This document shows, in pieces, positions 2,628 through 59,869 of a stretch of DNA of 64,000 bases. This stretch comes from an uncultured Candidatus Altimarinota bacterium (GTDB lineage Bacteria; Patescibacteriota; Gracilibacteria; BD1-5; UBA2023). The position numbers were made by a program, and so were the translations under genes. The notes below the pieces were generated by a model. It did not search any database. It had not been told where the DNA came from and saw only the letters and a program-made list of their open reading frames with translations. Positions within the stretch are counted from its first letter, which is position 1. Each line of letters opens with the position of its first letter. The stretch covers positions 4,685-68,684 of the forward strand of contig CAVXMT010000005.1 in the NCBI GenBank assembly GCA_963763105.1, given 5' to 3'.

Positions 2628-4268
2628 ATGAAAATAATTTTTGTCACATGAGGTGTTCTCTCTGGTATTGGGAAAGGTATTTCTGCCGCCTCGATCGGAG
2701 CTATCCTCAAGGGTATGGGAAAGAATGTCTATTGTCAAAAGATTGACTGATATCTCAATGTTGATCCAGGAACCATGTCGCCATTCCAGCATGGAGAGGT
2801 TTTTGTCACAGAGGATTGAGCCGAGACAGATCTCGATATTGGTCACTACGAGCGATTCCTCGATACCGACATGAATCGATTTTCCTCATTTACTTCTGGA
2901 AAACTCTATGAAGAAATCATTACCAAAGAGCGTCGTGGAGATTATCTTGGTGGTACTGTCCAGATCGTACCACATTTGACGGATCTTGTGAAAGAAAAAA
3001 TACGATCAGGATTTGATCTCGCAGGTGCTGATATTTCGATCGTCGAAATCGGAGGAACAGTCGGAGATATGGAGAATGAATATATTCTCGAATCAGCCCG
3101 TCAACTTCAGCATGATCTTGGAAAAGAGAATGTAATTTTTGTTCATGTAGCACTTCTTCCATATCTTGCTGCAAGCAAAGAACTCAAGACAAAGCCAATC
3201 CAGCACTCTGTCCGAACACTCATGAGCTATGGAATCAATCCTGATTTTCTCATCATCCGTGCGGATGCCCCGATTCCAGAGGATGTGATAGAGAAGATTG
3301 CACATTCGACGGGAATTTCCAGTACACATGTGATTCCAGCGCCGACGCTTGATTCGATTTATCGAGTTCCACTTTCTTTTCATGCGGAGCATTTCTGAGA
3401 GAAGATTTTTGCTGATCTCGGACTTCCAGAAGTGAAAGCAGACATGAAAAAATGGGAAATTCTTCTTGCAAACATAGACGCTTCACACGATATTCTTCGT
3501 ATCGCTATGGTCGGGAAATATGTCGGACTTGAGGATGCATATTATTCACTCAATGAATGACTCAAAGCAGCAGGATTTGCTCATCAGAAAAAGGTAAAAC
3601 TTGAATTCATCGAAGCAGAAGATATAGAAAAGGAATTGAAAATTGAAAATTGAAAATTGAAAATTACGGATCAAGGAAAGATCTCAGAAATCAAAATCCT
3701 TCAATGATTCGATGGAATCTGCATTCCTGGAGGATTCGGGACGCGTGGAACAGAAGGGATGATCGAAGCTGCAAAGTATGCTCGAGAGAATAAAATTCCT
3801 TATCTCGGAATCTGTCTTGGCTCACAAATAATGGCAATCGAATTTGCACGCAATGTTCTCGGAATTGTGGATGCTTCGAGTGAAGAATTCAATGTTGAAT
3901 GAAAGAATAATATCATCCATATTATGGAACATCAAAAAGGCCTCACGACGAAGTGAGGAAATATGAGACTTGGATCCTATCCATGTATCATTCATGAAGG
4001 GACATTGGCTGGAAAAATTTATAATGAACTTACTGTCTCAGAACGTCATCGTCATCGATTTGAATTCAATCCTGCATATCGCGAACAGATGGAAGCAAAA
4101 GGATTTCTCGTCTCAGCGACGTCACCTGATGGGACACTTGCTGAAGTCGTAGAGATCAAAGATCATCCATATATGATCGCAACACAATCTCATCCTGAGC
4201 TTATTTCTCGTCCGACAAGACCTCATCCACTTTTCATGGGATTTGTGAAGGCAATGATCGGTTCGTAA
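2628..4268 (+). CDS. pyrG: CTP synthase
   Basis: MKIIFVT-G(TGA)-GVLSGIGKG N-terminus, GGTVQIVPH, GATase domain PGGFGTRG...LGICLGSQ...HRHRFEFN. Single frame from 2628 to the TAA at 4266. Confidence 0.95.
3634..3665. repeat. (AATTGAA)x4.5 heptamer tandem array inside pyrG
   Basis: aattgaa aattgaa aattgaa aattgaa aatt, translated in frame as ELKIEN-G(TGA)-KLKI in the inter-domain linker. Confidence 0.9.
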
Positions 4269-4453: not shown

Positions 4454-5005
4454 ATGGCACAAGAAATCGAACGACAATATGTCGTCAATGCGACACATCC
4501 AGATTGGGAGAAGCTCAGAGCTTCGCTCCCAGCAAAGAAATATGTCCAAGCAACGATTCATCGTGGTGAGTGAAATAAACTTCGAGTACGACTTATAGAA
4601 GATCTCTGAACAGGAAAGAAAACGGCTGCCTTTACTTTCAAAGTACAGAAGAAGTCAAAAAGATATGAACCAAATATTCGTGATGAGTATGAATGGGAAG
4701 TGCCGTACCGCGTTGCACTATTTATCATGATCGGACACAAGGATGTCCAGAAAATTCGCTACGAATATCGTCATATCGATGGGAAAATATGGGAACTTGA
4801 TGAATATATTGCTGATAATGAATGAATTGTTCTCGCTGATATAGAGCTCTCCACGCTCGATGAAAAATTCGAGATTCCTTCGTGGGTCTGACAAGAGACA
4901 ACAAAGCTCAAGAAGATTACCAATAATTCATTCTCGCTTCATCCATACAAGAGCTGGTCAGGAGAAGAAAAGAAGTGGTATGAGACACTCAAAACAAAAA
5001 AATAA
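4454..5005 (+). CDS. CYTH-domain protein (triphosphate tunnel metalloenzyme family)
   Basis: MAQEIERQYVV start (EIERKF-like motif) and ...EIPSWV-G-QETT tail. Four TGA-Gly codons. TAA stop at 5003. Confidence 0.7.
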
Positions 5006-5473: not shown

Positions 5474-7165
5474 ATGCTTAAGCTTTCCACGTTCCCATTC
5501 AAGACACTCAAGACCCTTCCAAAAGTGAGTGATAATAAGTCTACTTCTATCCTTCTTCAGGGATGATATATTCGCCAATGCATGGCAGGCGCGTATGAAT
5601 TTCTCCCGATAGGATATAGAGTACTTCGTAATATCGAAAATATTGTCCGTGAAGAAATGGATAATGCTGGCTATCATGAGATGCTTATGACTATACTCAC
5701 TCCTCGTGAGCTCTGGGATACGACCAATCGATGGGATATTCCAGAATATTTCAAGGTGCCTGGATGGGGAACGAGCGAGTTTCGTATTGCACCGACGAAT
5801 GAAGAAAATGTCACCAGTATTTTCCGAGAATTTATCCAGTCGTACAAGGATCTTCCGACGTGCGTCTATCATATTCAGAAAAAGTTTCGAAATGAGAAAC
5901 GAGCAAAATCAGGACTTCTTCGTGGTCGAGAATTTATCATGAAGGATGCCTATTCTTTCCATGCAAATATAGAGGATTTCGAAGCTTTCTATGAGAATAT
6001 CAAGTGAGTCTATATGCGAGTTTTTGAGCGACTTGGAATTGGTGCTGATACAGTCATTGCTGATGCTGATGGTGGCGCTATTTCTGACAAGAATTCTCAT
6101 GAATTTCAGACATTTATCGAAATTGGTGAAGATACTATTGTGCAGGATAGCTCAGGATATTCATACAATCTTGAGCTTGCTTCAGGAATTGCCGATACAA
6201 AAAATCCTGATGAGAAAATACAGTCTCTTGAGTATATCGATACCATCGATGAGATCGTCACTATGGAAAAGATGACGAAATATTTCAATGCTCCAGCTTG
6301 GCAGATGCTCAAGACAGTTGTCTATAAGACAAAAAGTGGAAAATTTTTCTCTATTGTCATTCGATGAGATCTTGATGTGAATGAGATCAAGGTTCGTAAA
6401 TTTGTCGCAAAAAAATATGGTGAAGAATTTACTCAAGCAACAGAGGATGACTTGATTTCTCTCGGTACTGTTCGTGGATTTATTACACCAATACGAGCTT
6501 CAAAACTCAAGATGGAAAACTTTGGTGATGAATCTCTTATGAGTGCGAAGAATTATTTTGGTGGCGCGAATACACTCGCAAAATCGACAAAAAATGTAAA
6601 TATTGCTGATCTTGATATTGCTGAATTCCTTGATTTCAATGAACCAATCGAATGATTTACTTCTCGAAATGTATCTGGCGAAAAGCTCACATTTCGTAAA
6701 GCATGTGAAGTAGGGAATATTTTTCATCTGGGAGAGAAATATTCGAAACCATTCGGACTCGCATATTCTGATGAGAACAATAATACTGTAAATCGAGTAG
6801 AAATGGGATGTTATGGAATCGGAGTTTCGCGACTTATGGGCGTTCTCGCTGAGTATTTCATGACAGAAAGTGGAATTGCTTGGCCAGAATCTGTTGCCCC
6901 TGCTGATTATTATATTATTGTGCTCGGTGAAGAAAATATTGCTTGAGCAACTATCCTTGCAAAATCTCTCGAGAAAGAATGAAAGACAGTTATTCTTGAT
7001 GATCGAATGGGTGGAAAATTTGGATTTGGTCAGAAGGCAGCTGATTGCGATCTCTGGGGTATTCCGAATCGGATTGTTCTTTCACCGGGGACTCTTGGAG
7101 AAGGAGGATACGAAGTGAAGGGGCGAACACAAAGTGAAAGTGAAATAATTCCATATTCTTTTTAG
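5474..7165 (+). CDS. proS: prolyl-tRNA synthetase
   Basis: Class II aaRS motifs FRNEKRAKSGLLRGREFIMKDAYSF and EVGNIFHLGEKYS, GCYGIGVSRLMGV, plus a C-terminal anticodon-binding domain. Every codon from 6653 to 7165 checked in frame. Confidence 0.95.
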
Positions 7166-7175
7166 CTTAATTTTT

Positions 7176-7802
7176 GTGAAGAGATTTCTTCTTTTTTTCA
7201 TCTTTCTCGGAGTTCTTTCTCTTTTTCCATGGTTTCTGATCTCAGGGATGGTATCAGATTCACTCTATCGTGATGTGGACGCTATTCCAGAACGAGAAGT
7301 CGGACTTCTTCTTGGGACGACCCCAAGTGTAAATGGAATCAATAATGTTTTCTATTCGACTCGCATCGAAGCTGCGAAAATGCTCTATGAACGGGGGAAG
7401 ATCCACCATATTCTTGTCTCATGAGATAATAGCACTGCCGCATATAATGAGCCTGAAGCGATGAGAAAATCACTTGTAAAGTCATGAATTCCAGAATCAG
7501 CGATTACACTCGACTATGCTGGATTTCGAACACTTGATTCTGTAGTGCGTGCTGGAGAAGTATTTTCTCTTACATGATGATTCACAATTATTTCTCAGCC
7601 ATTTCATGTCGAGCGAGCCCTCTTTCTTGCTCGGGCTAATCATATCGATGCGATCTGATATGGCTCTGCAAATGTGAGTCTATCTCTTGGGCTTCGTACC
7701 TATATTCGAGAAATTGGAGCTCGGTGGTTGGCGCTCTATGATGCTATTTTCGGAACAAATCCTATAGTGCTTGGTGATGTAGAGTTGCTCAATGGGAAAT
7801 AA
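7176..7802 (+). CDS. SanA/YdcF-like DUF218 membrane protein
   Basis: GTG start, N-terminal TM helix, then EREVGLLLGT...ILVS-G-DNSTAAYNEPEAMRKSL...IISQPFHVERALFLA. Confidence 0.75.
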
Positions 7803-9865: not shown

Positions 9866-11062
9866 CTATTTTATCGAGAGAGTAAATACTGTCCCTTCAT
9901 TCACAATACTTTTCACAGATATTTTCCAGCCATAGAGCTTTACTATACGATCGACGACAGAGAGTCCAATGCCAGTTCCTTCATATTTTCCACTGCGATC
10001 TACACGAAAAAATCGGTCAAATATTTTTTTGGTATCTTCTTCATTCATTCCAATTCCCGTATCTCTGATGGAAAGGAGATTATTTTTCCATGAGATATGT
10101 ATTTTTCCACCTTCTTTATTGTAACGGATCGCGTTTTGTAGGAGATTGGAAAAAAGAATATGAAAATGATGAGGATTCACCGAAATTTTTGCATTTTTTG
10201 CTATATCAAGAGTGACACTAAGATTCTTTGATTCGATTTCTCTTTTTCGAGTTTCGATAATTTCTTCAATAGCTTTTCATATTTCTATATGTTCTGCTTT
10301 TCCTGATTTTTTAATATTTACAAGCTCGAGAAGGCCATCCAGGGAACTACTCATAGAAAGTATAGTAGCAATATTTTCTTCGATGAGATCTTTCTCAAAG
10401 TGTTTCGAATCTCTGAGTATCTGAAGATTGCCAGAAACAATTGCAAGTGGAGTCTTGAGCTCATGCCCAGCATCATGAACAAAGTGTGACATAGCATTCA
10501 TATTTGCTTCTACAGGAATGAGTGTCTCACGAATGAAATATCTTCCCATGAGATAAAATGGAATCAGAATAGCAAAATCCATAGCAAGAAATCGGAGAAT
10601 ATCACGAAAAATATCTTCGAGAGGATATCAAGATCTTCGGAAGAATATTGTAAATTGTTCCTGTCCAGAGCCACTTGATACTTTCCGTAGAAGAAGATCA
10701 TCATATTCTGTGGTGGTCTCAAGAGGAAGAGATTTGAATACTTCTTTTTTTACGAATTCATCATCACTTTCGATATTGAGATTTCCTTGATTCCTGATAA
10801 CATTTCCTTCAATATCCACAATCACCGTATTCATTCCGATAGCTGGAGCCCTTCTTCATTTTCAGACGGGAGGTTCGTGAGAATTCTGTCTTTCGAGAAC
10901 ACGAGTAATCTGACTTTCAAAATTTTGTTTTTGGAATTGGCTTTCCATCAGCAGTCTTCAAATTATGAAAAATCCTTCAAATAAAAGAAGAAAAATAAAG
11001 GCTCATCAGACAAAGAGTGTCACAAGCCGTCGTTCAGTAGATAGAAGTGAATGTTTTTCCAT
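9866..11062 (-). CDS. sensor histidine kinase
   Basis: H-box HDAGHELKTPLA, N-box LLQNAIRYN, G-boxes DTGIGM and GTGIGLS, N-terminal TM segments. TAG stop at 9866. Confidence 0.85.
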
Positions 11063-11073
11063 AAGAAGATGTT

Positions 11074-18804: not shown

Positions 18805-19416
18805 ATGAATCAAAATATTAAGGATATACTCGAGAAGATTGAATCACTCAATAATGATCTCAAAGAAGAATATAGCCGACTCTCTGAAAAGTATGGATTC
18901 TCTCTCGAAGAAAAAAGAGTTATATTTCTCGAAGAGATAAGAAAACGAAATAAAAGTCTTAAGCTTCCAAAATGGAGATTTCCAATTACATCGACTAATG
19001 TTCGACAAATTATTGCTATACCATTTATCCTTGGAATGATTGTTCCTGCTATTATTCTTGATTTTTGTATTACGATATATCATACAATAGCATTTTCTCT
19101 CTATCGAATACCAAAAGTAAAACGCTCTGAATATATTATATATGATCGGAAATTTCTCGACTACTTGAATATTATCCAACAACTCCAATGTCTCTATTGT
19201 AGCTATGTAAATGGACTTTTTGCATATTCAGTCGAGATTGCTGCCCGTACAGAGCGATATTGGTGTCCAGTCAAGGCTGCACACAAGCCAAGATTTTCTC
19301 ACGGATGGTATCAGGACTTTGCTGACTATGGAGATCCCAAAGAGTGGGAAGAGAAATACCGTCATGATGAGAAAGCCTTTGCGAATATAGAGAAAAATAC
19401 TCCTTCTACTAAATAA
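18805..19416 (+). CDS. hypothetical membrane protein with Cys-rich C-terminal domain
   Basis: Uninterrupted 203-codon ORF with no TGA. Two TM helices, then CLYCSYVNG...RTERYWCPVKAAH. Confidence 0.6.
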   Translation: MNQNIKDILEKIESLNNDLKEEYSRLSEKYGFSLEEKRVIFLEEIRKRNKSLKLPKWRFPITSTNVRQIIAIPFILGMIVPAIILDFCITIYHTIAFSLYRIPKVKRSEYIIYDRKFLDYLNIIQQLQCLYCSYVNGLFAYSVEIAARTERYWCPVKAAHKPRFSHGWYQDFADYGDPKEWEEKYRHDEKAFANIEKNTPSTK

Positions 19417-19426
19417 TTTCCTCACC

Positions 19427-20422
19427 TTGCTTCCAAAACTCCTCACATCTCGACTTCAGACAATTCTTTCGACTGATTATGATAGTGTCATAGAAGCATT
19501 TTCTCATGAGAGGAAGTGATCTTTTCGTATCAATACTCTGAAATGAGATGGTACGGAAGTATTCTCAGAATTCGAAAAGAAATGAATCAAAGTCGAGAAA
19601 TTCGACGGGATACCATGAGCGTATTTTTTTGATCGAAAAGATGACTATGCGATGAAGGGAACTGATGCTTTCTATTCTGGAAAAATCTATCTCCAGTCAA
19701 TATCAAGTATGTTTCCCGTTCGCGCACTTGATCCACAGGCAACAGATACTATTCTCGATGTCTGTGCGGCGCCTTGATCCAAGACGACACAGATAGCTAT
19801 GATGATGAAGAATGAAGGAAAGATTGTCGCTCTCGAACAAAATCAGATTCGCTATGATAAACTCATGCACAATGCTATTCTTCAGTGAGCGACTATTATT
19901 GAGTGAGTGAAGATGGATGCAAAAAAATGGCTAATTGACAATTGACAATTGATAATAAAACAACAAAAAAATTGTATCAATGATTATCCATTATCCATTA
20001 TCCATTGTCAATTTAATCGTGTCCTCCTCGATGCACCATGTAGTGCTGAGGGGCGTATCTCTCTCTCGAACGAGAAGACATACGGTTTCTGGTCCCGTGA
20101 TAACATTCAGCAAAAAGCAGAGCTTCAGTATGAACTCCTCTCTCTTGCTTTCTCTCGTCTCAGGGTAGGAGGAACTCTCGTCTATTCGACATGTACTCTT
20201 GCGCCAGAGGAGAATGAGTGAGTAATATCTCGTTTTCTCGTAGACTGTCCTGATGCACGTCTTGAATCTATAGATATATGACTTTCCCATGCGACATGGT
20301 GGAAAAATGGACTTACTTCTTTTGGTAAATCTGAATATGGAGAAGAAATGAAAAAGGCAGTTCGGGTATTGCCAAGTGATGAGACAGAAGGATTTTTTAT
20401 GGTAAAAATTATTAGACCATAA
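19427..20422 (+). CDS. RsmB/RsmF-like rRNA cytosine-C5 methyltransferase with repeat insertion
   Basis: TTG start (no ATG in the open frame). FRINTLK, DVCAAP-G-SKT, LLDAPCSAEG, LVYSTCTL. Confidence 0.8.
19933..20011. repeat. inverted pair of heptamer arrays inside the RsmB/F-like gene
   Basis: AATTGAC AATTGAC AATTGAT AAT (19933-19956), 27-nt A-rich spacer, then TTATCCA x3 TTGTCAA (19984-20011). TTGTCAATT is the reverse complement of AATTGACAA. Confidence 0.9.
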
Positions 20423-24339: not shown

Positions 24340-24392
24340 TAGAAAATTCCAGAAATGGAAAAATTCAATCTAAACTCTAAAATCTTCATTTT

Positions 24393-28995: not shown

Positions 28996-29033
28996 TCTCA
29001 ACTATAAATTGTCAATTATAAATTTTCTTATCT

Positions 29034-35085: not shown

Positions 35086-35129
35086 ATACTCCCGAGTGTA
35101 CTCGGAAGAAGGGCATTTGCAAGGATATA

Positions 35130-36293
35130 TTACACTATAATTCCACTTCCAAGTACGCGATCTTCGTCGTAGACAACACAGATTTGTCCAGGAGTTATCG
35201 CGCGTTGAACTACCTCGAATCTCACTGTCAACTGTCAACTGTCAACTATGAATTCTCCATTTTGATCCTCTTGTCGATAGCGAATCTTGACTCAGTATTT
35301 TTTTCACGCTTCAGGAATTTCCCCACTCCATTCCACGAGAATACATTCATTTTTATAGAGCGAGAGTTCATCTTCATTTCCTACGGTGATAGTATTTGCC
35401 CGTGTATCTTTTGCAATGACAAAAAGGGCTTGCCCTCCACCGACTTTGATACCTTTTCTCTGGCCAATCGTATAGGAAAAAGCTCACTCATGTTCTCCAA
35501 TGATTTTTCCATGAATATTCAGAATATTTCCTGGCTTTTTCGGAAGTCGACGTTCGAGAAATTCTTTCATGCTTACTTTTCCGATAAAGCAGAGTCACTG
35601 AGAATCTTTCCTTTCCGCATTGGGAAGTCCTACTTTTTTTGCAATCTCACGAACTTCTGACTTCATAAGGTGTCAGATCGGGAATATTGCCTTCTCAAGC
35701 TGAAATTCTGAGAGTCGAGAAAGAAAATATGACTGATCTTTATTTGGATCGACTCATTTTAATAGTTGATAGTTGATAGTTGATAGTTGATAATTCTTCT
35801 CGGCTCTTTCATTCTCAATTCTCAATTCTCAATTCTCAATTATTCGTGCATAATGCCCGGTTGCGATAGCGTCAAATCCAAGTGAAAGTGCCTCTTCGAG
35901 AAAGAGATCAAACTTCACAAGATTGTTGCAAAACACATCCGGATTGGGAGTGCGCCCTGCATCATATTCTCTATAGATATACTCTACGATACGTTTCTCG
36001 TATTCTTCTCGATAGTCGAATGTGTAGAAAGGAAGATTGAGAAATTCTGCTACTTTTCTTGCTTCTTCGAGGTCTATCCGAGTCGGACAATATCCCCCCT
36101 GTCCCCCCTTGACAAGGGGGGTGCCCAAAGGGCGGAGGGATTCGTCTTCGAGATAATTGATCATAAATCCACAGGATACGTCATAGCCTGCTTCTTTGAG
36201 AAGATATGCGGATACTGCAGAGTCGACTCATCATGAGAGTCCGACAAGAACTTTCGTTGGATTTTTTTGGGAATGATGATTTTTATCTTCCAT
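35130..36293 (-). CDS. mnmA: tRNA 2-thiouridine(34) synthase MnmA, carrying three repeat-derived in-frame insertions
   Basis: PP-loop VGLS-G-GVDSAVSA, NPDVFCN, ATGHYAR, DPNKDQSYFL, GQRKGI. Every codon from 35130 to 35831 verified. Confidence 0.93.
35226..35246. repeat. (TGTCAAC)x3 heptamer array in the mnmA C-terminal domain
   Basis: The coding strand reads GTTGACA x3, giving IVDS-G-QLTV. Confidence 0.9.
35764..35841. repeat. two heptamer arrays (AGTTGAT)x4 and (CTCAATT)x4 separated by 22 nt, inside mnmA
   Basis: 35764-35791 and 35814-35841. Encodes IEN-G-ELRIENERAEKNYQLSTINYQLLK-G between the ATGHYAR and DPNKDQSYFL motifs. Confidence 0.9.
36088..36140. repeat. G/C-run palindromic element (same family as 20831), in frame in mnmA
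   Basis: ATATCCCCCCtgtCCCCCCTTgacAAGGGGGGtg. Encodes LRPLGTPLVKGGQGGYCPT. Confidence 0.85.
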
Positions 36294-36927: not shown

Positions 36928-37009
36928 TTTTGCATTGAGGTTGATGAAGAGTGAGTATAGAGAAATTAGCGAAAAAGTAAAAAGCATTATTTCCAAACAT
37001 TTTTTTGAT

Positions 37010-41926: not shown

Positions 41927-42679
41927 GGGTCTTCCCCAGTTATCGGTTAGTTTTTCGGAGTAATTTTAAGATTTCTTTGTAGATATCTTTTCATTTTATA
42001 CGACAATTATATCTAAATTCAGATTCTTTCAAATAATAATAAAAGTAGGCTTTCTTAATTCCATTGAATCTTGAGAGTCTTCTTTTTGTGAAGCTCCAAA
42101 ATGATTCAATTCAGTTGATGTGTTGGTTTCATCTGGCAAATTCATTCGCTCCATGATGAACTCTATAATGCTTTTCATATCCAATATCCACAAGTCCATC
42201 ATATGCAGGCCATCCATCACTATTTATCTCTGTATCTTCTATCTTTACTTTTCATCTGATTATAGGTAATAGAGTCTTCTTTTTTACATCAGGAACTATC
42301 TCAGTATATACTTTTCAGTTTCTTTTCAGGAGTCCAAATACTATTGTTTTCATTCCAGCTCATCTTCATCGTTTTCCACGAACTCGAGTAGGTCAGAAGT
42401 AAGATTCATCTATCTCCATAGTTCCACTCCACACTTCTGCTTTCTCCTTTTCTTGATTCTCAAATATACATTTACGAATATAGAGATACCAATCATCTAT
42501 AGTTTTTGGATTTAAACCAATAATTTCATGTGTTTTTGAAGCGGGTAAATCCAGTGAAAAGAACTTGATAATTTCTCTTGTTTTCTTGTTTCAAATTCGG
42601 GATTTTTTTCGATACAGGTTTTTCTTCTCCATAGAGCCAGTATATTAGGTAAATAAATACCGTCAACTGGGGAAGACCC
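41927..42679 (-). mobile_element. IS element 'A' (IS1595/ISXO2-like) nested in IS-B
   Basis: Perfect 15-bp inverted repeats GGGTCTTCCCCAGTT / AACTGGGGAAGACCC. 7-bp direct repeat TTGGATA at 41920-41926 and 42680-42686. Confidence 0.85.
41940..42632 (-). CDS. IS1595-family (ISXO2-like) DDE transposase
   Basis: MEIDESYF-G-PTRVRGKR-G-R-G-AG, NSDGWPAYDGL, HINGIESFWSFTKRRL, FRYN. Several TGA-Gly codons. Confidence 0.85.
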
Positions 42680-43648
42680 TTGGATAATCTCGTTGTATGG
42701 TTTGGATAAAATCCAAACAAACAAAAAGTTGATCAATACTTCTCATCAATGAATTATATGCAAAATGAAGTCTTGGATGAACTGGCTTATCTCTCAGTGT
42801 TTTAGTATCCAGTTCTTGTTGTCTAAAGTCCGCCTCATACTTGTTCCTAAATCCCCTAAGTTGCCAAAGAAAAGTTGCCTTATCTGTATGTACTACTCAA
42901 TGAGTTATCTCCTTGAGTTTCTTGTATGATTCTATCCTTGGATATTTGAGAAGATATCTGTCTATGGTGGCTATTTTATGTGCTTGGCAGAGTTGTATAG
43001 GAATATTTGAATAGTATTTCCATATGGCAGTATCTACTCCATTTCTTCCATCAATCACAGCAAAGAAAGGAAGTGGATATCCCCCATGAGACAAATAGTG
43101 AAGTAATATTTCGTAATCTTCTTTGGTTTCTTGAAGAATGTGTTTAGATGCAAGAATATCTCCTGTAATGCCATCTATTGCCACCAAGAGTCACCATTGT
43201 GTATCTGAACCCTTTCGACCGAAGAATGTAGCATCGAGAATAAGGACAGATGAGGTATATTGAGAGAGATTTGGATTAAGACGGATATTATAATGAAGCT
43301 GAGACAACTCTATCTTTTCATAGAAGATAGAAGTCAGTTTCCTGTGTATTGTTTTGATGGACATTCAAGAATCATCTGCAAGTTCAGAAAGGGTTTGTTT
43401 ATGGAGAGAATAATCTTGAAATAATTGATCGTTCTGTTTCTGTGATGCTCTTCGAGAACTTCGGAAAACATACTTACAATTCATACACTTATATCTCTGT
43501 CTTCACCGTTCTTTACCATCTTTTCTGACAAGGTTATTCAAACATTTTGGACAGATTTTAATCATAAAAATAAAATAAAGCGGATAAACCGCTTTATTAT
43601 GCTGAGAACTCAGGAAAAAACCCACCAATAAATGTCCATTAAGCCATT

Positions 43649-46194: not shown

Positions 46195-46230
46195 TCTATA
46201 ATTGTAAATGGTGAATGACAAATCCCCAAA

Positions 46231-46258
46231 CAATTAACAATTAACAATTAACAATTAT
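46231..46258. repeat. (CAATTAA)x3 plus CAATTAT heptamer array in the rpmJ-rpsM spacer
   Basis: caattaa caattaa caattaa caattat. Confidence 0.9.
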
Positions 46259-46630: not shown

Positions 46631-46672
46631 TTTATTACTAAAACCTCACTCTAAACTCTAAAATCTAAACCT

Positions 46673-48784: not shown

Positions 48785-48805
48785 ATAATTCATAATTCAT
48801 AATTC
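48785..48805. repeat. (ATAATTC)x3 heptamer array in the rpoA-rplQ spacer
   Basis: ataattc ataattc ataattc. Confidence 0.9.
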
Positions 48806-48811
48806 AATACC

Positions 48812-50056: not shown

Positions 50057-50081
50057 AATCAATTATCAATTATTTCCTCCC

Positions 50082-51080: not shown

Positions 51081-51101
51081 ATAATTAATAATTAACAATT
51101 C
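51081..51101. repeat. ATAATTA ATAATTA ACAATTC heptamer array in the rpsG-rpmA spacer
   Basis: Direct reading. Confidence 0.8.
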
Positions 51102-51379: not shown

Positions 51380-51420
51380 TTCAGACTAAAATCTCAATCT
51401 AAAATCTAAAATTCCTTTCT

Positions 51421-53520: not shown

Positions 53521-54420
53521 ATGTTCCACCTCGAAAAAAACCAATATCCAAAGGATTTCTATTATCATCGTACAGCATCTGCTACCTATAGGGAGTACCT
53601 TCATACATGTAAGCTTGCAACTTTTGATATACAAAATCCACCACAATATGCATGGAAAAAACATATTTTCGGAAATTCTTTTGGAATCATAAAGTATGAA
53701 CGTATCGATGTCGAGCCCGATATCGAATATCTTAAGCAAGTGACAGGATTTCAGCATGCGTTTGTCGTATGGATACCTTATTCACGTGAGAATATCGATA
53801 GACCATGGAGATGACTCTGGCTCACAGATCACTTCGAAGAGACTGGATACGCTGAGTTAATTCATAATTGACAGTTGAGAAGTGACAGTTGAGAAGTGAC
53901 AGTTGATAATTTAGAAAAGATACCATATCTCTCTTCTTGGAATGATCGTGCGAAACGAGCACGAAAAAAATTTCTCGCTTCAGGGTGCACGATTCGTGAT
54001 GTGACTCCTGATGAATTCACGGAGGCATTCAGAACGACCAAAGTGAAACATTGGTATAAGTGAGCATACATAAGCTACTACAAGCGTATGGTTGGTATTG
54101 ATGCGACGAAGATTCGTCAATGGCTCGCATATGATCCTACTGGAAGGGTAATTGCCTGACTTGCTGTCCATGATTTCTGTGAAAATCATTCCGTCCATCT
54201 TGTGGCGTTTACTGATCAGAAATGATACCACTATCAACCTGGAACAGGGCTTATAGATCGGTGGTTTTCTGAGTCGTATGATCGTGGATACAAATATCTT
54301 TCATTCGATCAGCTTCGCAATAAAAATGGACCAAAAGACCAAAAAGGATATACGGAGTTCAAGGAAAACTTTCTCTCTGTATGACTCTCATTTAAGAAGG
54401 CATTCTTTCGATTCTTTTAG
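53521..54420 (+). CDS. hypothetical protein (possible FemAB/CelD-like acetyltransferase fold) with a 14-mer repeat insertion
   Basis: All 300 codons verified. ...HLVAFTDQK-G-YHYQPGTGLIDRWF...GPKDQKGYTEFKENF. The functional call is weak. Confidence 0.6.
53869..53910 (+). repeat. 14-mer x3 tandem array, in frame
   Basis: TGACAGTTGAGAAG, TGACAGTTGAGAAG, TGACAGTTGATAAT. Encodes -G-QLRSDS-G-EVTVDN. The last unit is identical to the tlyA repeat unit. Confidence 0.92.
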
Positions 54421-59133: not shown

Positions 59134-59869
59134 TTACAATTTTTTTATCCAGTACATCCATTCCTCATTCCCTGCCTCTCCAATGACAGTTGATTTCTCT
59201 TTTTGCAAAATTTCGCAAGATGAAGACTCAAGAAGATCTTCCCATATTTTCATTTTTTCTTCGATGATTTTTTCTCATTTTGGAATGCCAGTCTTTCGAA
59301 GATTTTCAGCACCAACTTCGAATTGAGGCTTATAGAGAAGGAAAATATTTGTCGATATATTTGCGAATCTGAGTATGGCAGGAAGTATTATTGTTATAGA
59401 AATAAAAGAAACATCGCAGGTGATAATATCATATTGTTTTTTCTGATTTTGGAATGTACGAATATCCGTCTGCTCATATGAAGTCACTCGCGAATCAGCG
59501 CTGATTCTTGTATCAAGCTGGCCTGTACCGACATCGACAGCATCTACGTGAAGTGCTCATTTTTCGAGAAGTACCTGAGTGAATCCTCCTGTCGAAGCAC
59601 CAATATCGAGACAATCACTTCCTGTAATTATCAACTGTCAATTATCAACTGTCAATTGTTCTAAAAATCCATCAAGTTTTCCAGCACTCCGAGACACCCA
59701 ATGAAGTCGCTTATCTTCAACAAGGCTAACGGTATCAGTCCCAGTAATATCAAAAGAAACTTTTGTTATGATTTTTGAATTGACGAGAACAAGTCCAGGA
59801 TTCGATAAATTGTTTTGCTTTATTTCTCGTAAATCCATACTGGAGAGCAATGTGTTGATCAAGTCGCAT
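59134..59869 (-). CDS. tlyA: TlyA-family rRNA 2'-O-methyltransferase; needs a +1 frame change near 59797
   Basis: The S4-like N-terminus MRLDQHIALQYGFTRNKAKQFIES is in the frame of ATG 59869. The rest (GLVLVNSK...DIGASTGGFTQ...TCDVSFIS) is one nt out of frame: GAA TCC t GGA. Confidence 0.7.
59627..59658. repeat. 14-mer x2 tandem array inside tlyA
   Basis: ATTATCAACTGTCA x2 followed by ATTG. The coding strand reads TGACAGTTGATAAT x2, encoding LTVDN-G-QLII. Confidence 0.92.

Follow-up and report, generated by a model that had tools for sequence, protein, structure and literature searches.

In-frame arrays of an ARTTGAN heptad family in conserved genes of a Gracilibacteria-type bacterium that reads TGA as glycine

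Contingency loci carry repeats of non-triplet units within the open reading frames (ORFs) of phase-variable surface or restriction genes. Rickettsia palindromic elements (RPEs), about 100-150 bp long and belonging to families of conserved sequence, lie in frame in unrelated housekeeping genes, are translated and are tolerated at the protein surface. The operators of the omega repressor of inc18 plasmids consist of contiguous 7-bp units (heptad WATCACW), some direct and some inverted, whose core is conserved and whose edge positions are degenerate. The STRR sequences of cyanobacteria were reportedly described by Mazel and colleagues in 1990 as dispersed tandem heptamers of intergenic regions, with no in-frame coding copies described, and one of their units, CAACAGT, is said to lie one base from AGTTGAC after rotation and reverse complementation. 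Direct repeats of the heptamer TAACTGA occur in marine Beggiatoaceae, Cyanobacteria and some Bacteroidetes in sets of 2-6 copies, often "split" by related heptamers and mostly a few nucleotides upstream of start codons, including those of ribosomal-protein genes (MacGregor 2015, PMC4679880). Forward copies contain stops in all frames, reverse copies in ORFs encode (LSVISYQ)n, strains differ in 7-nt steps, a single inverted repeat is reported, and function and mechanism of transfer are left without explanation (PMC4679880). Heptanucleotides were the commonest class of long simple sequence repeats (LSSRs, units of 5-11 nt) in the survey of Mrazek et al. (2007), as cited in PMC4679880, where polymerase slippage is given as the proposed origin and non-triplet units are summarised as rare in coding regions. 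Here, a heptad-repeat family with the consensus ARTTGAN is described from a 64-kb stretch of DNA (contig CAVXMT010000005.1, positions 4,685 to 68,684; hereafter the window) of an uncultured Gracilibacteria-type bacterium in which TGA is read as glycine. Its arrays lie inside pyrG, mnmA, tlyA, an rsmB/F-like gene and the gene of a hypothetical protein, at six sites, five of which are in-frame insertions relative to homologues.

The family was first noticed in an earlier note, made from the sequence alone, as a 14-mer tandemly repeated in two unrelated genes, and both occurrences are exactly as claimed: positions 53869-53910 on the plus strand read TGACAGTTGAGAAG TGACAGTTGAGAAG TGACAGTTGATAAT, and positions 59627-59654 on the minus strand, the coding strand of tlyA, read TGACAGTTGATAAT twice. 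The 14-mer occurs 14 times at up to 2 mismatches, where 0.95 occurrences are expected, and none of 100 shuffled sequences reached 14. A count of exact tandem arrays with 2.5 copies or more gave 8 at period 7, 1 at period 14 and none at periods 6 or 8-13. In having head-to-tail heptads beyond chance length, the arrays agree with the heptanucleotide class of LSSRs. Runs of three or more ARTTGAN units form 8 arrays in the window and none in 100 shuffles, which bears out the note's view of one dispersed family in unrelated genes. The units inside genes, in a common register, are AATTGAA, AATTGAC, AATTGAG, AATTGAT, AGTTGAC, AGTTGAG and AGTTGAT, with AATGGAT as a variant. Most arrays are perfect, those of the hypothetical gene and tlyA being built of mixed units, and the intragenic arrays comprise 3-8 copies, the usual size being about 4 units. 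The intragenic arrays are as follows.

Positions 53859-53914, plus strand: array of the hypothetical gene (53521-54420, plus strand), core at 53869-53910; eight heptads, AATTCAT AATTGAC AGTTGAG AAGTGAC AGTTGAG AAGTGAC AGTTGAT AATTTAG; encodes ..HNGQLRSDSGEVTVDNLE..
Positions 59622-59657, minus strand: array of tlyA (59134-59838, minus strand); AATTGAC AGTTGAT AATTGAC AGTTGAT AATT; encodes QLTVDNGQLII.
Positions 3634-3665, plus strand: array of pyrG (2628-4268, plus strand); (AATTGAA) x4.6; encodes ELKIENGKLKI.
Positions 19933-19956, plus strand: forward (sense) arm of the pair in the rsmB/F-like ORF (19391-20422, plus strand); AATTGAC AATTGAC AATTGAT AAT.
Positions 19983-20016, minus strand: inverted (antisense) arm of the same pair, 26 nt from the forward arm in a total insert of about 84 nt; ATTATCC x3 followed by ATTGTCAATT on the plus strand, AATTGAC AATGGAT x3 on the minus strand.
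Positions 35811-35841, minus strand: forward (sense) arm of the pair in mnmA (35130-36293, minus strand); (AATTGAG) x4.4; encodes IIENGELRIEN.
Positions 35762-35792, plus strand: inverted arm of the mnmA pair, antisense to mnmA and 18 nt from the forward arm; (AGTTGAT) x4.4 on the plus strand, read as YQLSTINYQL.
Positions 35224-35247, minus strand: solo sense array at the C-terminal hairpin of MnmA; (AGTTGAC) x3.4; encodes VDSGQLTV.

The recurring peptides of the N-G-QL, DS-G-QL and DN-G-QL kind that the note had listed were recovered on translation, as NGQL/DSGE in the hypothetical protein, DNGQL in TlyA and the RsmB-like protein, DSGQL/ENGEL in MnmA and ENGKL in PyrG; examples of peptides predicted from the arrays are IENGELR, DNGQLIITG and NGQLRSDSGEVTVDN. 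TGA must be a sense codon in this genome because the ORFs of the window are long only when TGA is read through and because translations with TGA as glycine fit known structures end to end. These are structures of CTP synthase (the pyrG product; E=1e-159), MnmA (E=8e-83), TlyA (E=1e-30) and, for the RsmB/F-like protein, RsmB/F-type methyltransferases (E=1e-36). With this code the host ORFs are uninterrupted across every array. The closest relatives of MnmA are encoded at 75 loci, nearly all in Gracilibacteria metagenome-assembled genomes; the hypothetical protein gave no match in a Pfam domain search, and homologues of it are present in six related loci. Public protein predictions for the clade (P0001-P0120 and the gene calls of contig L076) follow code 4, with TGA read as tryptophan, or code 11, under which genes are interrupted at TGA; the array peptides surface there as "ENWKL", or the genes are in pieces. 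For code-25 lineages this is a hazard in annotation: with gene callers set to code 11 or code 4, array-bearing genes come out truncated or mistranslated.

Relative to solved homologues, the array sites hold about 15 extra residues in PyrG, about 16 in hairpin 2 of MnmA, 5 in TlyA and about 20-26 in the RsmB/F-like protein, and the hypothetical protein has a 19-aa insertion at its array that is missing from all six of its homologues. The pyrG site is empty in a close relative: the orthologue of the closest one (contig L461, 87% identical) reads GAAAAA-AATGGAGCG-AAAATC where the window reads GAAAAG-G(AATTGAA)x4.6-...-AAAATC, with no insert and no AATTGAA seed. The arrays share with RPEs the insertion of a repeat in frame in unrelated conserved genes whose orthologues are without it. 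Different, likewise heptad-built inserts are present in the same PyrG loop in three other lineages. Hairpin 2 of MnmA ranges from 22 to 173 aa across the Gracilibacteria clade, an insertion hotspot, and contig L001 (about 90% nucleotide identity in the flanks) has a different, GC-rich palindromic insert where the window has the paired mnmA arrays. Orthologues of tlyA, rsmB and pyrG were not found within the MnmA- or S7-centred loci of relatives. An AlphaFold2 model of PyrG kept the fold (mean predicted local distance difference test score, pLDDT, 85; predicted template modelling score, pTM, 0.86), with the insert in a stretch of lower confidence (pLDDT 66-86). The model was run on P0001, the same protein with tryptophan at the TGA positions, and the helix predicted over the insert should be taken cautiously for that reason.

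Further inserts were seen in the same proteins. The hairpin 2 sites of MnmA lie at 35762-35841 in the window and 10272-10368 in L001, with others in L010, L015, L017, L035, L061 and L066. The palindromic insert of L001 reads CCTCACCCCCTAACCCC...GGGTTGGGGATGAGG, a "QDFSxARNDR"-type peptide, of a type typical of translated palindromic repeats, is common to several species at this hairpin, and L066 has a whole additional domain of about 150 aa there. Residues 52-64 of the window MnmA (36102-36140) form a 13-aa insert, SLRPLGTPLVKGG, that is not heptad-built, is without counterpart in 38 of 38 aligned relatives including L001, and resembles translated GC-rich palindromic elements (compare "LLLKEKGLG" of L001). 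In many relatives (P0005, P0007-P0010, P0014, P0017, P0022 and P0030) a second PyrG loop (after "LAEKVY", near window position 3990) is extended in frame by variable inserts of 10-35 aa, and the window has none there; several of the inserts contain "RHSELAKNP...GSFVPQDD"-type peptides, similar in appearance to translated palindromic repeat elements.

Codon usage marks the arrays as a DNA-level element and not ordinary coding sequence, since the codons they consist of are rare in this genome. In verified genes TGA makes up only 15% of glycine codons, and leucine is encoded to 90% by CTT/CTC and to 5% by TTG. TTG accounts for 8 of 12 leucine codons inside the arrays and 7 of 146 outside them in the same genes (p=3e-7), and TGA for 7 of 7 glycine codons inside and 32 of 143 outside (p=5e-5). 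This make-up argues against the ARTTGAN motif being a by-product of peptide selection.

The earlier note saw constraints on orientation and frame, with TGA placed as a codon in every coding case, and both points need correction. Since 7 is coprime to 3, an array of at least three units is read in all three phases, and an in-frame TGA is a matter of arithmetic. Two arrays within coding sequence are antisense, those at 35762-35792 (mnmA) and 19983-20016 (rsmB-like), and both are downstream arms of convergent pairs (forward array, spacer of 18 or 26 nt, inverted array). AGTTGAT and AATGGAT arrays would yield TAG or TAA in sense orientation, and units of this kind are antisense only; orientation is thus explained in part by purifying selection against TAA and TAG.

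The same element is present outside the clade. A scan of IMG/VR for (ARTTGAN)x4 gave at least 120 viral-contig stretches, with 148 arrays among the matches listed, to which the viral figures below refer. Two scrambled heptads of matched composition gave 96 and 90 stretches; raw abundance is therefore ruled out as proof that ARTTGAN is special, and the contrast rests on array architecture. Arrays of identical units make up 30% of the ARTTGAN arrays versus 79% and 89% of those of the scrambled controls, exactly 4 units are found in 81% of the ARTTGAN arrays whereas the controls have long tails to 14-19, and median contig GC is 0.52 for ARTTGAN matches versus 0.30 and 0.29 for the controls, which are mostly on giant-virus contigs. 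ARTTGA is fixed in the viral arrays and the seventh base and the R position vary, which is the signature of a conserved motif and not of a simple expanding microsatellite. An inverted partner lies within 200 nt downstream of 27 of the 148 arrays and upstream of none (0/148), and both pairs of the window obey this polarity. A GC-rich hairpin and a T-run are often found between the arms of viral pairs, and their inverted arms often use the variant ARTGGAN, like the rsmB/F-like insert of the window. In these standard-code viral contigs 102 of the 148 arrays are at or just past the end of a same-strand ORF and 55 provide its TGA stop, counts to be read with caution as high GC inflates spurious ORFs; the exclusion of forward copies from ORFs holds there. 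Deposited records with the module are human-gut phages without annotation and cyanobacterial plasmids, among them a plasmid of Annamia dubia (AATTGAC x3 AATTGAT, 13-nt spacer, GTCAATT GTCCACT GTCAATT GTCAATT).

On Firmicutes-like phage contigs (L183 at 495-650 and 1170-1300; L247; L230; L235) the module is a repeated intergenic cassette of about 130 bp, in the order: stop of the upstream gene inside the array, (AATTGAC)x4, GC hairpin with T-run, (ATTGTCC)x4. Some cassettes have a palindromic element of the "GTCATCTTGAGCGAAGCGA...TCGCTCGAAATGAC" type between their arrays.

Set beside the systems described so far, the arrays resemble the TAACTGA repeats in their 7-nt period, in a rotated unit (AACTGAT) one base from AATTGAT, in forward copies with TGA in each of the three frames, in length differences between strains of 7-nt steps, and in their reverse copies, which encode LSVISYQ there and LSTINYQ in the window. 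The position near ribosomal-protein starts is shared by eight leader arrays of the window (below) but not by the intragenic arrays. The window unit is ARTTGAN with a free seventh base and not TAACTGA, the leader arrays are reverse-oriented (G-free mRNA) and have other units, convergent pairs are regular in the ARTTGAN family, and the forward copies of the window sit within essential genes and are read across, as could not happen in the standard-code hosts of TAACTGA. As in LSSRs at large, tandem heptads are far above chance in the window and period 7 stands out against 6 and 8; unlike generic repeats of this class, as far as they are summarised in the TAACTGA work, those of the window are in frame in housekeeping genes and have a motif common to loci and phyla. 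The likeness to RPEs extends to two of the six sites, which are palindromic pairs of about 80 nt, and to the palindromic insert of L001 at the mnmA site. RPEs are not heptad arrays and involve no stop-codon reassignment, and a sequence relationship to the window arrays is unlikely given the heptad structure of the latter. With contingency loci the arrays share a unit that is not a multiple of three inside an ORF, where a change of one unit would shift the frame, but the hosts here are housekeeping enzymes (pyrG, mnmA, tlyA, rsmB/F-like) and the copies only 3-8. Exact ARTTGAN modules are present on cyanobacterial plasmids, which invites comparison with STRR; a literature search for the array strings and the STRR heptamers returned nothing relevant. 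The earlier note knew of no described element of this kind, which is not correct, as heptanucleotide repeats are already a recognised class and ARTTGAN arrays are common in viral contigs and present on cyanobacterial plasmids. Within the literature searched, three features appear to be undescribed: the ARTTGAN consensus, the strict arrangement in convergent pairs that recurs across phyla, and the read-through of forward copies in essential genes.

The explanation favoured here, as probable but far from secure, is that a heptad-repeat family of gene-boundary type entered coding sequence since TGA encodes glycine, and was then shaped by slippage or homogenisation and by purifying selection. The element would be ARTTGAN, usually in about four units, either solo or as a convergent pair of forward array, short spacer and inverted array. 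In standard-code genomes, such as those of the gut-phage contigs and cyanobacterial plasmids, it would be kept to gene boundaries by its forward strand, on which every one of the three frames contains TGA. In a Gracilibacteria-type lineage with UGA as glycine it could sit inside coding sequence and be translated; the recoding of TGA would have let the arrays in. Copies would survive only if the frame is preserved by their net length, if they bring no in-phase TAA or TAG, and if the protein can accommodate the added residues, as PyrG, MnmA, TlyA, the RsmB/F-like protein and the hypothetical protein would at hairpin tips and loops. Once settled, they would change in the manner of heptanucleotide microsatellites, through 7-nt slippage and through homogenisation inside an array. 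The arrays would be translated passengers without a function of their own, and their arrival would have been by insertion or templated copying and not by slippage from native sequence.

Several points weigh against this explanation. The C-terminal array of mnmA adds no length, and ARTTGAN-like sequence is present at that place in the relatives L001, L014 and L023; some arrays may have arisen or been kept in place. All five solo intragenic arrays are sense (pyrG, the hypothetical gene, tlyA and the mnmA C-terminus in the window, and (AGTTGAG)x5 in fmt of L001), though antisense copies would stay open too, and this bias hints at peptide selection or a strand-specific process. Neither the L183 copies nor the window sites show a target-site duplication, and no mobilising enzyme was identified for the arrays, the nearby IS1595 transposase (41940-42632) and the IS200-like transposase of L076 being without demonstrated link to them. 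Scrambled heptads are also numerous in viral contigs, as said above, and the likeness of the window arrays to the viral and cyanobacterial ones could be convergent. Insertion is deduced only from the empty sites and the shared architecture, and translation of the arrays is predicted from sequence. The sample comprises one 64-kb window and fragments of relatives.

The strongest rival, though an unlikely one, is that the arrays are pure microsatellites formed in place by slippage from local sequence, the shared ARTTGAN being coincidental or a general slippage bias. Change between relatives is partly of this character. Period 7 is over-represented in them (27 arrays, with 12 and 4 at periods 6 and 8; in a second count, 26, with 1 and 1), and the leader array of the L32-like gene (51386-51412) is a single 7-nt unit different in length from that of the 89%-identical relatives L078/L079. 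The C-terminal array of mnmA reads ACTATCA ACTGACA ACTGTCA in the 99%-identical L076 and ACTATCA ACTGTCA ACTATCA in L001; in the window it is perfect, (ACTGTCA)x3.4, at equal length, and it has therefore been homogenised. Many other window arrays are perfectly homogeneous, and heptanucleotides are the commonest long simple sequence repeats, attributed to slippage, in the survey of Mrazek et al. (2007) as cited in PMC4679880. Whole-unit copy-number change was not found in the intragenic arrays between the window and L076, the mnmA pair being identical and nothing but substitution or homogenisation having altered the C-terminal array. Frame-shifting copy-number variants were likewise absent between the two, so that the arrays do not behave as phase-variable contingency loci, and no related locus has an exact period-7 array of 5 or more copies. 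Formation in place also fits poorly with the empty pyrG site, where there is no AATTGAA to start from, with the codons rare in host genes, and with nine arrays at six sites that have 5-6 of 7 fixed positions in common. The viral arrays, with N and R variable and ARTTGA fixed, are unlike the control microsatellites, and strict forward-then-inverted pairing (27 versus 0) is no product of slippage. Seeding of slippage by a native beta turn (I-E-N-G-K-L, equal to 2.6 heptads) was rejected because the arrays are enriched in rare TTG and TGA, and is also ruled out by the seedless empty site in PyrG of L461. The earlier note's picture of an expanding, microsatellite-like family thus holds for the one-unit leader difference and the homogenised mnmA array but not for the viral arrays, which behave as a conserved motif.

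At the MnmA C-terminal hairpin other Gracilibacteria have expansions of AATGGTG, GATGAGA, GGTGGAA, AATGAAG, AATTTAC and TTTACAG, many of 4.3-4.9 copies (L016 at 4462-4531, L024 at 2642-2714, L002 at 7150-7179, L004 at 5850-5920, L005 at 10984-11017 and L015 at 11046-11068). Between the window and L076, 23 of 26 differences over 1,987 bp fall inside one 160-bp stretch (35104-35262) that covers the 3' end of mnmA and sequence just downstream, around the C-terminal array, which suggests a recombination tract or local hypervariability.

A second rival, rated as rather improbable, is that the arrays are adaptive protein insertions whose peptides usefully extend hairpins or loops, the DNA periodicity reflecting only how they were generated. 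The forward strand encodes (N/S)-G-x-L-x-(I/V)-(D/E) heptapeptides and the inverted strand LSTINYQ-type peptides. Hydrophilic character and an abundance of NG turns set the sense peptides apart from those read antisense (FNFQFSI, VNCQLST), and the sense orientation of every solo array (four in the window, and fmt in L001) agrees with selection on the peptide. The same loops also hold inserts in many lineages, but these vary in sequence and length and many lineages have none, as the range of MnmA hairpin 2 illustrates, which is the pattern of tolerance. The unrelated host enzymes, the rare codons and the lower AlphaFold2 confidence over the insert likewise speak against adaptation.

Internal promoters or other regulatory sites at the DNA level, such as heptads bound by a regulator, are improbable to a still greater degree. 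The earlier note had read hexamers within the arrays as -35 and -10-like elements, and the tlyA array does contain TTGACA, 17 nt and GATAAT (11/12, the best site in a 9-kb scan), the array of the hypothetical gene GTGACA, 17 nt and GATAAT (10/12). The tlyA geometry follows from the 14-mer being repeated twice; in the pyrG, mnmA and rsmB arrays, with TTGAAA, TTGAGA and TTGATA units, a -10 element is missing at the required distance. Promoter-like sites in the region number 30 versus 30.0 in shuffles. With the site count at shuffle level and only the tlyA and hypothetical-gene arrays fitting, an internal sigma-70-type promoter is not supported. Conservation of ARTTGA with a free seventh position in the viral arrays resembles a protein-recognition motif, and their architecture matches that of omega operators; the omega heptad is a different one, its operators are not known from coding regions, and for ARTTGAN arrays no binding protein was identified. 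Convergent pairs fold only modestly beyond shuffles (z-scores -1.8 and -1.5) and solo arrays not beyond them, and strong DNA or RNA hairpins were rejected on these grounds. A search of the window for known RNA families returned one tRNA only.

Artefact or chance (misassembly or random similarity, the former raised in the earlier note) is practically excluded: no shuffle in 100 reached the counts, the host ORFs are open throughout, and the arrays are no assembly artefact because independent contigs reproduce them, the European Nucleotide Archive (ENA) contig L076 (99% identical) with the mnmA pair unchanged and the Logan contig L077 with 100% identity over three leader arrays.

At eight ribosomal-protein genes a further period-7 array precedes the ATG by 2-9 nt.

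Positions 24367-24385, plus strand: rplV (L22) leader array; AATCTAA ACTCTAA AATCT; 7 nt upstream.
Positions 28997-29024, minus strand: rplR (L18) leader array; CTCAACT ATAAATT GTCAATT ATAAATT on the mRNA strand, ARTTGAN-type on the minus strand; 9 nt upstream.
Positions 46229-46257, plus strand: rpsM (S13) leader array; (AACAATT) x4.1; 7 nt upstream.
Positions 46648-46670, plus strand: rpsK (S11) leader array; ACTCTAA ACTCTAA AATCTAA AC; 2 nt upstream.
Positions 48785-48806, plus strand: rplQ (L17) leader array; (ATAATTC) x3.1; 5 nt upstream.
Positions 50058-50073, plus strand: rpsL (S12) leader array; (ATCAATT) x2.3, which is AATTGAT on the minus strand; 8 nt upstream.
Positions 51081-51100, plus strand: rpmA (L27) leader array; ATAATTA ATAATTA ACAATT; 6 nt upstream; perfectly conserved in 89%-identical relatives.
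Positions 51386-51412, plus strand: leader array of the L32-like gene; (CTAAAAT)n; 8 nt upstream.

The mRNA strand of these arrays is G-free or nearly so, and no Shine-Dalgarno-like sequence is present between array and start at the eight genes. The habit recurs with other A/T/C-rich heptads across about 20 related metagenome loci. A possible role of these arrays is that of leaders for translation initiation, in an organism that manages without Shine-Dalgarno sequences.

Mobile elements were also noted. L076 has a 583-bp insertion (1986-2568; window 36987-36995) with an IS200-like Y1 transposase (Pfam Y1_Tnp, E=6e-32) and hairpin-forming ends, inserted after ..ATTTCCA with the element ending ..ACTTCCA, and the window is the empty site. 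In the window a transposase gene of the IS1595 family (ISXO2-like DDE; 41940-42632, minus strand) adjoins an ORF with an N-terminal zinc ribbon (42645-43565, minus strand), the two together probably forming a mobile element. A link of the arrays to IS200/IS605 elements (transposons with single-stranded DNA hairpins, one of them polymorphic in this species) was considered and had no evidence in its favour. Convergent arrays could serve as inverted repeats, in the manner of miniature inverted-repeat transposable elements (MITEs) and other transposons.

A bolder possibility, put forward tentatively and held to be less probable than not, is that the ARTTGAN modules of cyanobacteria, gut and rumen phages and Gracilibacteria are one element across phyla, bound by a conserved nucleic-acid-binding protein or mobilised by some mechanism. 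Such a module would have about 4 forward heptads, in some cases a hairpin or terminator, and about 4 inverted heptads, with the polarity convergent throughout. It would mark gene boundaries and supply stops in all frames under the standard code, and the change of UGA to glycine would have made it a generator of protein insertions. If so, the code change directly reshaped the evolution of protein sequence, and the starts of ribosomal-protein genes came to be occupied by leader arrays with TAA. With its strict polarity, conserved core and position at gene ends near terminators in unrelated phyla and phages, the module may be a real regulatory or mobile element, and it widens the question posed in 2015 for the TAACTGA repeats. 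If the explanation favoured above holds, reassignment of a stop codon would alter which selfish or repetitive DNA is tolerable inside genes: a repeat that limits itself elsewhere, by TGA in every frame, would become a source of peptide insertions in essential enzymes, which bears on the abundance of lineage-specific loops in the proteins of recoded candidate-phyla bacteria.

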